Positions 8,172-17,449 of a DNA stretch of 64,000 bases are shown piece after piece (position 1 is the first letter of the stretch; the number at the start of each line of letters is the position of its first letter). The position numbers were made by a program, and so were the translations under genes. The notes under the pieces are model-generated. The model had not been told where the DNA came from and searched no databases. It saw only the letters and a program-made list of their open reading frames with translations. Origin of the DNA: Escherichia coli (GTDB lineage: Bacteria > Pseudomonadota > Gammaproteobacteria > Enterobacterales > Enterobacteriaceae); assembly GCF_009931435.1 (NCBI RefSeq), contig NZ_CP043414.1, one strand, 5' to 3'.

Positions 8172-9860
8172 ATGGGTAGTGAAAAAAAGGCGAAAGGCTG
8201 GCGGTTCTATGGTCTTGTAGGTTTTGGCGCAATAGTACTGCTTTCCGCTGGTGTCTGGGCATTGCAATATGCTGGTAGTGGGCCAGAAAAAACGTTGTCG
8301 CCGCTGGTGGTACACAACAATCTGCAAATCGATCTCAATGAGCCGGATCTCTTTCTCGACAGCGACTCTCTAAGCCAGCTTCCCAAAGATCTTCTCACTA
8401 TTCCTTTTCTTCACGATGTTCTAAGCGAAGATTTCGTTTTTTATTATCAGAACCATGCCGACCGTCTGGGCATTGAAGGCAGCATTCGCCGCATTGTCTA
8501 CGAACACGATCTCACACTAAAAGATAAGCTCTTTTCGTCACTCTTAGATCAGCCCGCGCAGGCGGCGCTATGGCACGATAAACAAGGCCATCTTTCTCAT
8601 TATATGGTGCTGATCCAGCGAAGTGGTTTAAGCAAGCTGCTGGAGCCATTGCTGTTTGCCGCTACCAGCGACAGCCAGTTAAGTAAAACGGAAATCAGTA
8701 GTATTAAGCTAAATAGTGAAACCATCCCGGTTTATCAGTTGCGCTATAACGGCAATAACACCCTGATGTTCGCAACTTATCAGGACAAGATGCTGGTGTT
8801 TTCCAGCACGGACATGCTGTTTAAAGATGATCAGCAGGATACCGAAGCCACGGCGATCGCAAGTGATTTGTTGAGCGGTAAAAAACGCTGGCAAGCCAGC
8901 TTTGGCCTGGAAGAGCGTACTGCCGAAAAAACGCCAGTACGCCAGCGCATCGTGGTCAGTGCAAATTTGCTGGGTTTTGGCTACCAGCGATTAATGCCTT
9001 CTTTTGCTGGTGTGCGCTTCGAAATGAGCAACGACGGCTGGCACAGTTTTCTGGCGTTAAATGATGAATCCGCAAGCGTAGATGCCAGTTTCGATTTTAC
9101 GCCTGTATGGAACAGTATGCCCGCAGGGGCCAGCTTCTGTGTGGCGGTGCCTTATTCACATGGTATTGCTGAAGAGATGCTTTCCCACATCAGCCAGGAA
9201 AACGACAAGCTCAACGGGGCGTTAGACGGTGCTGCGGGGCTGTGCTGGTATGAAGATTCAAAATTGCAAACCCCGCTGTTTGTCGGTCAGTTTGATGGCT
9301 CAGCCGAACAGGCACAACTGCCTGGAAAACTGTTTACGCAAAATATTGGTGCGCACGAAAGCAAAGCGCCAGAAGGTGTTTTGCCGGTAAACCAGACTCA
9401 GCAGGGCGAAGCGCAAATCTGGCGTCGCGAAGTGAGTTCCCGATACGGCCAGTATCCGAAAGCACAGGCGGCGCAACCAGATCAATTAATGTCGGATTAT
9501 TTTTTCCGCGTGTCGCTGGCGATGCAAAACAAGACGATGCTTTTCTCCCTCGATGACACGCTGGTCAATAACGCGTTGCAAACACTGAATAAAACCCGCC
9601 CGGCAATGGTGGATGTGATACCCACTGAAGGCATTGTTCCGGTCTATATCAATCCACAAGGCGTGGCGAAACTGCTGCGTAACGAAACGCTGACCAGTCT
9701 GCCGAAGAATCTCGAACCGGTTTTTTATAACGCCGCACAAACTTTATTAATGCCGAAGCTGGACGCTTTATCTCAACAACCGCGTTATGTCATGAAGCTG
9801 GCCCAGATGGAACCCGGTGCCGCCTGGCAGTGGCTACCCATTACCTGGCAGCCACTATGA
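8172..9860 (+). CDS. yfaA: YfaA, DUF2138-family envelope protein with an N-terminal TM/signal anchor
   Basis: 564-aa ORF, likely ATG at 8172 (562 aa); hydrophobic N-terminus; first gene of the yfaATSQP cluster; stop overlaps the yfaT start (ATGA). Confidence 0.85.
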
Positions 9861-10480
9861 GGCACGGGCTGCTGGCGCTGATTTGCTGGCTGTGTTGTGT
9901 TGTTGCTCATAGCGAAATGCTGAATGTCGAACAATCGGGGCTGTTTCGCGCCTGGTTTGTGCGTATTGCACAGGAACAGCTTCGCCAGGGGCCAAGTCCG
10001 CGCTGGTATCAGCAGGATTGTGCGGGCCTGGTGCGATTTTCGGCGAACGAGGCGCTGAAAGTTCACGACAGCAAATGGCTAAAAAGTAACGGTATAGCAA
10101 GTCAGTATTTGCCGCCTGAAATGACGCTAACACCTGAACAGCGTCAACTGGCGCAAAACTGGAATCAGGGGAACGGAAAAACCGGCCCCTATGTGACCGC
10201 GATTAATTTGATTCAGTACAACAGCCAATTTATTGGCCAGGACATAAACCAGGCGTTGCCTGGCGATATGATTTTTTTCGATCAGGGCGATGCCCAGCAC
10301 TTAATGGTCTGGATGGGGCGTTACGTCATCTACCACACCGGAAGCGCCACGAAAACTGACAACGGAATGCGCGCAGTCAGTCTGCAACAACTTATGACAT
10401 GGAAGGACACCCGATGGATACCCAACGATTCCAATCCCAATTTCATTGGCATTTATCGTTTAAATTTTCTGGCGCGATAG
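9857..10480 (+). CDS. yfaT: YfaT, DUF1175-family exported protein
   Basis: ORF 9830-10480; start [19 protein letters not shown] has a signal-peptide-like N-terminus; 207 aa. Confidence 0.85.
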
Positions 10481-16668: not shown

Positions 16669-16672
16669 TGCT

Positions 16673-17449
16673 ATGCGAAAGATTTTTTTTCCGTTGTTAC
16701 TGGTGGCGCTTTCGCCTGTCGCTCACAGTGAAGGTGTACAGGAAGTCGAGATTGATGCACCGCTCTCTGGCTGGCATCCTGCGGATGGTGAAGATGCCAG
16801 CTTTTCACAATCGATCAATTACCCCGCGTCGTCCGTCAACATGGCAGATGATCAAAATATCTCAGCGCAGATCCGCGGCAAAATAAAGAATTATGCGGCG
16901 GCGGGTAAAGTTCAGCAGGGCCGGTTGGTGGTCAACGGTGCCAGTATGCCGCAGAGAATTGAATCCGATGGTTCATTTGCACGCCCTTATATTTTCACTG
17001 AAGGCAGCAACAGCGTGCAGGTCATCAGCCCAGATGGGCGAAGTCGACAAAAAATGCAGTTTTACTCAACGCCGGGGGCTGGAGTGATTCGCGCGCGTTT
17101 ACGGCTGGTTCTCTCGTGGGATACGGACAATACCGACCTCGATCTTCATGTTGTCACGCCGGATGGTGAACACGCCTGGTACGGTAACACGGTGCTGAAA
17201 AACAGTGGTGCACTGGATATGGATGTCACGACGGGGTACGGACCGGAGATTTTCGCCATGCCAGCGCCAGTTCACGGGCGCTATCAGGTATATATCAACT
17301 ACTATGGCGGACGCAGTGAAACGGAATTGACGACCGCCCAACTGACGCTGATCACCGATGAAGGATCGGTTAATGAGAAACAGGAAACATTTATTGTACC
17401 GATGCGTAATGCTGGCGAACTGACGCTGGTGAAAAGTTTTGACTGGTGA
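16673..17449 (+). CDS. yfaP: YfaP, DUF2135-family exported protein
   Basis: 258-aa ORF, signal peptide MRKIFFPLLLVALSPVAHS; starts 4 bp after the yfaQ stop. Confidence 0.88.
   Translation: MRKIFFPLLLVALSPVAHSEGVQEVEIDAPLSGWHPADGEDASFSQSINYPASSVNMADDQNISAQIRGKIKNYAAAGKVQQGRLVVNGASMPQRIESDGSFARPYIFTEGSNSVQVISPDGRSRQKMQFYSTPGAGVIRARLRLVLSWDTDNTDLDLHVVTPDGEHAWYGNTVLKNSGALDMDVTTGYGPEIFAMPAPVHGRYQVYINYYGGRSETELTTAQLTLITDEGSVNEKQETFIVPMRNAGELTLVKSFDW

Follow-up and report, generated by a model that had tools for sequence, protein, structure and literature searches.

The yfaA-yfaT-yfaS-yfaQ-yfaP cluster of Escherichia coli as a probable counterpart of the Pseudomonas mag operon, with a macroglobulin lacking the thioester motif

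Introduction

What do the five genes between gyrA and atoB do for an Escherichia coli cell? In a 64 000-nucleotide stretch of the E. coli contig NZ_CP043414.1 (RefSeq assembly GCF_009931435.1; we call this whole stretch the window), positions 8172-17449 hold the cluster yfaA-yfaT-yfaS-yfaQ-yfaP, whose central gene encodes a homologue of the alpha-2-macroglobulins (A2Ms). Innate-immunity-type proteins are rarely found in the periplasm. The bacterial macroglobulins are one instance, and the mechanism of the class without a thioester is still poorly understood. An earlier reading of the letters alone (the sequence-only reading) took the function of the cluster in E. coli to be unknown, a statement that is out of date (PMC5764988, PMC12663445, PMC12282094). 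The Yfa system is already known: its genes are annotated in K-12, and the two-class scheme of bacterial A2Ms, with both classes in E. coli, is described in PMC5764988. We find that the cluster is almost certainly the Escherichia orthologue of the P. aeruginosa mag operon, in a five-gene version without magA, and that as a whole it is best explained as a Mag-type non-covalent trap that would protect peptidoglycan in E. coli; we put the probability of this reading at about 0.6. As judged from the sequences, what is added here is a conserved 67-nt gene overlap with its consequence for the RefSeq start of yfaS, the lack of magA in Enterobacterales, an apparent stepwise decay of the thioester motif, and a CVEQ motif kept by 10 out of 78 orthologues.

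Five closely joined genes between two terminators

The cluster and its boundaries are laid out as follows:

8172-9860, + strand: yfaA, 562 a.a. (open reading frame listing and direct translation)
9857-10480, + strand: yfaT, 207 a.a. (open reading frame listing and direct translation)
10414-15018, + strand: yfaS, 1534 a.a. (an alternative ATG at 10399 would give 1539 a.a.)
15019-16668, + strand: yfaQ, 549 a.a., with a GTG start
16673-17449, + strand: yfaP, 258 a.a.
8043-8064, + strand: gyrA terminator hairpin followed by a T-run; upstream boundary of the cluster
17482-17517, both strands: bidirectional intrinsic terminator of yfaP (+) and atoB (-); downstream boundary of the cluster

The sequence-only reading had described five tightly joined, co-directional genes between these two terminators, and the coordinates, all three junctions and both hairpins are as it claimed. 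The yfaA/yfaT junction is an ATGA (9857-9860), the TAA of yfaS (15016-15018) abuts the GTG of yfaQ at 15019, and a spacer of 4 nt (16669-16672) separates yfaQ from yfaP; translation of the window gives no internal stop in any of the five genes. These junctions, together with the 67-nt overlap between yfaT and yfaS that is conserved across genera (see below), indicate that the five genes are translationally coupled. The gyrA hairpin has a 9-bp stem (AAAGGGAG.../...CUCCCUUU) followed by a U-run, with a folding energy of -15.1 kcal/mol (z -1.5; RNA fold of 8030-8085). The yfaP/atoB hairpin has a 14-bp GC-rich stem, with energies of -22.1 kcal/mol on the + strand (z -3.7) and -20.7 kcal/mol on the - strand (z -4.7); none of 200 shuffled sequences was as stable. 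RefSeq annotates these five genes by the same names, with gyrA and atoB on either side, in the most similar E. coli genome (98.6-98.7% identity). N-terminal export or anchor sequences, also claimed earlier, are seen in all five proteins (cleavage sites by eye), in YfaS only if translation starts at ATG 10414.

The cluster corresponds to the mag operon of Pseudomonas

Related loci were collected as the 80 best-matching ones from a genome scan with YfaT. They are mostly from Pseudomonas, but also from Escherichia spp., Superficieibacter, Enterobacillus, Yersinia alsatica, Edaphovirga and a Methylobacter, and the order yfaA-yfaT-yfaS-yfaQ-yfaP is common to all of them, including more than 70 Pseudomonas loci. 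The five genes are 43-77% identical to their counterparts in Pseudomonas, where the system is represented by MagABCDEF of P. aeruginosa (PA4492-PA4487), a type II bacterial alpha-2-macroglobulin system with the same order and the same Pfam families for these five genes. Gene position and families together equate YfaA with MagB, YfaT with MagC, YfaS with MagD, YfaQ with MagE and YfaP with MagF.

The search with hidden Markov models recovered all five expected families: DUF2138 in YfaA (E 8e-287; also NCBIfam PRK11410, 903 bits), DUF1175 in YfaT (E 2e-58), A2M-type domains in YfaS (MG2, 5e-19; A2M_BRD, 5e-17; A2M, 5e-12; bMG10, 1e-5), two copies of DUF2300 and a partial SpoIID match in YfaQ, and DUF2135 in YfaP (E 6e-17). 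YfaT further matches the solved structure of P. aeruginosa MagC (PDB 7BK8) with an E of 7e-103, about three quarters of the aligned residues being identical by eye. It is on these Pfam and NCBIfam matches, the MagC match, the shared order and the 43-77% identity that the near-certain orthology rests; the Pseudomonas Mag system, named as the closest described relative by the sequence-only reading, is indeed that relative by families, gene order and identity.

The two systems differ at the 5' end. A YfaP-like open reading frame upstream of yfaA (the magA position) is found in none of the Escherichia, Superficieibacter, Enterobacillus, Yersinia and Edaphovirga loci (Enterobacterales loci L003-L008, L056 and L081), where yfaA follows directly after the gyrA terminator. 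The Methylobacter locus and almost every complete Pseudomonas locus have a YfaP/MagF paralogue at that position and thus the six-gene form. A further difference concerns control: Gac/Rsm regulation is the Pseudomonas feature, whereas the Yfa cluster is known here from its sequence.

YfaS has lost the thioester and kept the bait

YfaS contains three cysteines, two within the signal peptide (C25 and C27) and C1189, and C-x-E-Q is absent from every frame variant of the gene; both counts, and the intact frame without internal stops, agree with the sequence-only reading. Pfam finds no TED or thioester family in the protein. A single-sequence search of the PDB with YfaS gave no match, but a family profile built from 23 YfaS orthologues matches the structures of ECAM/YfhM (E 6e-13), so that the similarity between the two E. 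coli macroglobulins is at the profile level only. In the profile alignment YPYGCLEQTAS of ECAM is opposite the family consensus YPYGGVEQTAS, which locates the remains of the site:

13615-13632, + strand: degenerate thioester site G1068-G-V-I-N-T1073 of YfaS, where ECAM has G-C-L-E-Q-T

G1069, I1071 and N1072 stand at the positions of the thioester Cys, Glu and Gln. Since all three are replaced, YfaS cannot form a thioester, in line with the loss proposed earlier. The site is further decayed in YfaS (GGVIN) than in most Pseudomonas orthologues (GGVEQ), GGV(I/V)N being the form found in Enterobacterales.

An intact YPYGCVEQTAS (around residues 1056-1086) is kept by 10 out of 78 Mag-type orthologues (L010, L018, L026, L027, L031, L039, L045, L049, L069 and L077), among them those of P. 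panipatensis, P. oryzagri and Ca. Methylobacter oryzae, and its Cys is the sole one in the mature protein; two further orthologues (L017 and L033) have YPYCGVEQ. By their motifs, the orthologues line up in a stepwise decay from CVEQ through GGVEQ to GGV(I/V)N, and the published equation of type II with thioester-less appears not to be universal, because ten macroglobulins encoded in mag operons keep CVEQ. These CVEQ-keeping orthologues offer a natural comparison for the contribution of the thioester.

The bait region, which the sequence-only reading expected to be lost as well, is retained:

12964-12984, + strand: bait TNRSERR, YfaS residues 851-857, homologous to the MagD bait ANRSERG

ANRSERG was established by experiment as the bait of MagD (PMC5764988). 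Its YfaS counterpart lies within a conserved block, NRS[E/D]R.VK.LERPRRE; over the whole length YfaS is 52-57% identical to its Pseudomonas orthologues, and MagD is like YfaS in having no thioester Cys.

yfaS probably starts inside yfaT

RefSeq (PGAP) starts the macroglobulin at GTG 10504, which leaves it without a signal peptide. An upstream ATG gives a different picture:

10414-10527, + strand: YfaS signal peptide, 38 a.a., ending ...GLANA/DD (cleavage by inspection)
10414-10480, + strand: out-of-frame overlap of the yfaT 3' end and the yfaS 5' end, 67 nt

ATG 10414 has a Shine-Dalgarno sequence, GGAAGGA (10401-10407), 6 nt upstream, and agrees with the coordinates of b4500 in K-12. The overlap with yfaT is exactly 67 nt in 80 out of 81 loci, from Escherichia to Pseudomonas. 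Both the Shine-Dalgarno sequence and the ATG of yfaS are formed by the yfaT codons W-K-D-T-R-W, and rare synonymous yfaT codons (ACA, CGA and ATA) are fixed in 21 out of 22 divergent representatives, the exception being the Methylobacter locus, in which yfaT and yfaS do not overlap. Because the signal peptide and the Shine-Dalgarno sequence come together with an overlap conserved in 80 out of 81 loci, ATG 10414 is likely to be the correct start and GTG 10504 wrong. Of the range of 1534-1539 a.a. given by the sequence-only reading, both open reading frame lengths exist, and the 1534-a.a. form is the right model.

Pseudomonas orthologues of yfaS have an additional, ATGA-coupled Met at codon 22 (e.g. 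in locus L013), which fits the 26-residue signal peptide listed for MagD of PAO1 (PMC3735191). The E. coli codon at this position is ATA, so the upstream ATG, 67 nt inside yfaT, would be the sole start that yields an exported YfaS.

From ATG 10414 the N-terminus reads as a plausible signal for signal peptidase I (ANA/DD). It also contains the string IAAC at residues 22-25, followed by a second Cys (residues 22-27 together, 10477-10494 of the window), and we considered whether YfaS is a lipoprotein; the hydrophobic stretch before the string is not long enough and other genera do not conserve the motif, so the string is probably fortuitous. A Tat signal (MDT-R-R in Pseudomonas) was likewise rejected: the RR precedes the hydrophobic core by about 20 residues, reads Q-R in E. 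coli and arises as a consequence of the overlapping yfaT frame.

The partner proteins

A hydrophobic helix spans residues 10-34 of YfaA and recurs as a helix in its AlphaFold2 (AF2) model (pLDDT 76); the rest of the model consists of repeated alpha/beta modules and has no strong neighbour in the PDB. YfaA is 43-48% identical to the Pseudomonas gene product at the MagB position. MagB has a single transmembrane helix (PMC3735191), an anchor that the two proteins share, and is the key stabiliser of the complex (PMC5764988).

YfaT is the best-conserved member of the cluster, with 67-80% identity across genera (the others have 42-65% outside Escherichia and Superficieibacter). Its signal sequence ends in ...VVAHS/E by eye. 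The NlpC/P60 match is weak (0.0026), but MagC, its close homologue, has a solved NlpC/P60-like fold, and D54-C55, H148 and H160 are invariant in the family alignment, the pattern of the NlpC/P60 Cys-His-His triad. DUF1175 is given as a peptidoglycan-binding family in PMC10318531, with reference to the MagC paper.

YfaQ has a signal sequence ending in ...PTLA/EE by eye. Its N-terminal domain models as similar to penicillin-binding protein (PBP) transpeptidases and class-D beta-lactamases, and its C-terminal domain models as SpoIID-like. Three sites were noted:

15196-15207, + strand: SxxK, S60-K63, invariant, opening the expected active-site helix of the PBP/beta-lactamase-like domain
15601-15606, + strand: K195-T196
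16018-16020, + strand: E334, invariant across the family

E334 stands at what we take to be the position of the catalytic Glu of SpoIID. The invariant SxxK and the invariant Glu suggest that YfaQ may be no chaperone but a cell-wall protein that is active or senses a ligand.

YfaP has a signal ending in ...PVAHS/EG by eye, and aligns to the Pseudomonas genes at both the MagF (downstream) and the MagA (upstream) positions; MagA and MagF are paralogues (PMC3735191), and MagF is a partner that binds MagD 1:1. Searches of the PDB by sequence and by profile with YfaA, YfaQ and YfaP gave nothing usable. The description of four of the five proteins as DUF-only is thus right about the families, but understates what can be said, given the solved fold of MagC and the PBP-like and SpoIID-like models of YfaQ.

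Conservation and natural lesions in Escherichia

The cluster is found in 5398 out of 5426 complete E. coli genomes, with at least 80% coverage in 5178; it is partial in about 220 and absent from 28. In another collection yfaQ was present in about 98% of 131,610 genomes (PMC12282094). Relative to K-12, the ratio of nonsynonymous to synonymous substitution rates (dN/dS) is 0.06-0.08 for each of the five genes (the yfaA values against E. whittamii and E. albertii were disregarded as products of indel misalignment). With such ratios in a cluster present in 5398 out of 5426 genomes, the five genes are under strong purifying selection.

The window itself comes from an unusual E. coli lineage: over 5398-18707 the best gyrA identity among the 5426 complete genomes is 99.0%, and its yfa cluster is 95.1% identical to that of K-12, with only a small group of genomes at 98.5-98.7%. 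Recent horizontal transfer was considered and rejected, the GC content of the cluster matching that of its flanks (0.47-0.55) and YfaS of Enterobacterales forming one clade.

The sequence-only reading took yfaS of K-12 MG1655 to be frameshifted. The lesion is instead a nonsense change from TGG to TGA, without change of length: b4500 has the same 4605 nt and an in-frame TGA at codon 1368 (W1368*).

14515-14517, + strand: codon 1368, TGG (Trp); TGA in K-12 MG1655, where it makes yfaS a pseudogene

A 33-mer requiring the TGA is found in 364 out of 5426 genomes, and the 12 matches listed are all K-12 or laboratory-type strains. Given this limited spread, almost any E. coli other than K-12 has an intact yfaS, and the strain of the window is not the special background for functional work that it had been proposed to be. 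What follows from the K-12 allele is that functional work needs a strain with an intact yfaS or a repair of codon 1368. A second, independent lesion of the cluster is seen in the E. albertii type strain NBRC 107761 (locus L005), in which yfaA has an in-frame stop at codon 342 and the other four genes are intact.

A trap for enzymes that attack peptidoglycan?

What the cluster may do has to be read largely from its relatives. In P. aeruginosa, MagD lies in the periplasm in association with the inner membrane, is stabilised together with MagA, MagB and MagF, is processed from 165 to 100 kDa, and is under RetS/RsmA control (PMC3735191). It forms complexes with MagA, MagB and MagF, and MagD-TB, in which a tobacco etch virus (TEV) protease site is engineered into the bait, traps TEV protease non-covalently (PMC5764988). 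The mag operon belongs to the GacA regulon, and deletion of magD sensitises P. aeruginosa to the peptidoglycan-targeting type VI secretion system (T6SS) effectors VgrG3 and Tae1 (PMC12663445). For E. coli, a yfaQ deletion gives wider cells, and its image-based profile clusters with those of mepK, mepS, nlpI, bamE and mlaE mutants (PMC12282094).

By analogy, the Yfa proteins would be exported by Sec and assembled on the periplasmic face of the inner membrane, with YfaA (MagB) as anchor and stabiliser and YfaP (MagF) binding YfaS 1:1. YfaS would be a snap-trap that works non-covalently: once its exposed, basic bait is cut, it would change conformation and hold the attacker. The complex would thereby shield peptidoglycan from hydrolytic enzymes that enter the periplasm, the best case being peptidoglycan-targeting T6SS effectors. 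To this picture, drawn from Pseudomonas, we add that YfaT and YfaQ may attach the trap to peptidoglycan, or may detect damage to peptidoglycan or repair it, because of the conserved motifs of both proteins and the peptidoglycan binding ascribed to DUF1175 (PMC10318531); such a role would match that proposed for PBP1c beside the type I macroglobulin YfhM. A Sec-exported guard of the periplasm, anchored in the inner membrane, with a bait-triggered trap and a peptidoglycan link through YfaT and YfaQ, is the best-supported mechanism, at roughly even odds when taken in all its parts.

Several points weigh against the trap. Localisation, complexes and trapping of YfaS in E. coli are extrapolated from the P. 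aeruginosa proteins, and one of the partners of MagD there, MagA, is missing from the Yfa cluster. VgrG3 is a glycoside hydrolase and not a protease, so bait cleavage accounts poorly for the protection observed in Pseudomonas. MagE is cytoplasmic in P. aeruginosa (PMC3735191), and DUF1175 is classed as catalytically inactive despite its conserved triad (PMC10318531). The bait region (YfaS 851-867; 12964-13020) hardly varies between genera and has many dibasic sites, whereas the baits of broad-spectrum macroglobulins are variable; this suggests a specific, possibly endogenous, processing protease. K-12 grows normally despite its truncated YfaS. Finally, a promoter scan detected no sigma-70 consensus promoter in 8026-8171, upstream of yfaA, which fits the finding that YfaQ-msfGFP is undetectable in K-12 (PMC12282094).

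Some of these points would be accommodated by an endogenous complex that remodels peptidoglycan or regulates its remodelling, in which YfaT and YfaQ are latent cell-wall enzymes and the macroglobulin is a scaffold or switch tripped at its bait by a housekeeping protease. The catalytic-type residues invariant in both YfaT and YfaQ, the top rank of YfaT in conservation (67-80%), and a dibasic bait that hardly varies, where decoy baits are variable, all point this way, as do the cleavage of MagD to 100 kDa in vivo, which depends on MagB and needs no external protease (PMC3735191, PMC5764988), and the change in width of yfaQ deletion mutants in unchallenged cultures, together with their grouping with peptidoglycan-hydrolase mutants (PMC12282094). 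However, PMC10318531 reports DUF1175/MagC as binding peptidoglycan but inactive, the cluster is dispensable (the K-12 nonsense allele; about 2% of E. coli without yfaQ) and patchy in Enterobacterales, few enterobacterial genera being among the 80 best-matching loci, and the Pseudomonas phenotype arises under T6SS attack (PMC12663445). We regard such a complex as possible, and as clearly the less probable account. A related and still more tentative proposal is that the Yfa/Mag complex is a damage-triggered machine for peptidoglycan surveillance and repair, in which the bait-tripped macroglobulin switch would release or activate YfaT and YfaQ; if so, the series CVEQ, GGVEQ, GGVIN would reflect a change of role, with covalent capture giving way to signalling or scaffolding.

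The role first proposed for bacterial A2Ms, that of a colonisation factor directed at host proteases (neutrophil elastase or digestive enzymes) that cross a damaged outer membrane, is unlikely for this cluster. E. coli is a gut commensal, and the bait of MagD is cut by chymotrypsin, trypsin and papain (PMC5764988); binding of human neutrophil elastase alters the conformation of MagD (PMC3735191), and strains without MagD show reduced virulence in a model of chronic infection, according to work cited in PMC5764988. Yet orthologues are plentiful in Pseudomonas from soil and plants and are also present in a methanotroph, all organisms without an animal host, the sole loss-of-function phenotype with a defined attacker involves bacterial T6SS effectors, and the conservation of the bait argues against broad targeting of host proteases. 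That the cluster is a decaying remnant without function in Escherichia is very improbable: W1368* in K-12, the codon-342 stop in yfaA of E. albertii, the genomes in which the cluster is absent (28 out of 5426) or partial (about 220), and the full decay of the thioester motif could be read in this way, but the dN/dS of 0.06-0.08 in all five genes, the five intact frames in the window and its closest relatives together with the conserved start and overlap signals, and the confinement of the K-12 allele to laboratory-type strains among the matches listed speak against it.

Relation to other macroglobulins

With the type I macroglobulins, ECAM/YfhM of E. coli and SaA2M of Salmonella with their PBP1c, YfaS shares the superfamily, a multi-MG architecture and the bait-region and MG10 domains; like the Mag proteins, they are periplasmic, associated with the inner membrane and genetically linked to a protein acting on peptidoglycan. 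The CLEQ thioester, the lipobox Cys, the pbpC neighbour and covalent trapping of type I, in contrast, have no counterpart in YfaS, whose neighbours are yfaT and yfaQ. The metazoan family (alpha-2-macroglobulin, C3/C5, CD109 and insect TEPs) shares MG2-type domains by profile (C5, E 6e-10; CD109, E 1e-8) and a common logic, in which bait cleavage leads to a conformational change. YfaS differs in having neither a thioester nor a receptor-binding function, and in that, by analogy with MagD, it would be a monomeric, periplasmic protein within a membrane-anchored hetero-complex.

E. coli offers the full kit of envelope genetics for work on such a system, but its standard K-12 strains carry the yfaS nonsense allele. 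The start at ATG 10414 and the conserved catalytic-type residues of YfaT and YfaQ also bear on such work.

Minor observations around the cluster

None of the five proteins matches a PADLOC defence model. An Rfam scan of 7900-17700 found no RNA family, and a repeat search found nothing beyond short chance matches. One element upstream of yfaA is conserved:

8155-8171, + strand: yfaA ribosome-binding region, with AAGGA in the loop of a small hairpin, cacAAGGAAugug

The string cacAAGGAAugug is invariant among Escherichia spp., and CAGGGAUG is found at the same place in Superficieibacter and Enterobacillus. The hairpin, at the Shine-Dalgarno sequence of yfaA, is close to the CsrA/RsmA consensus, ACARGGAUGU. 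On this motif match we speculate that it is a candidate CsrA/RsmA site; if so, CsrA-type control of yfaA would parallel the control of mag by RsmA in Pseudomonas.

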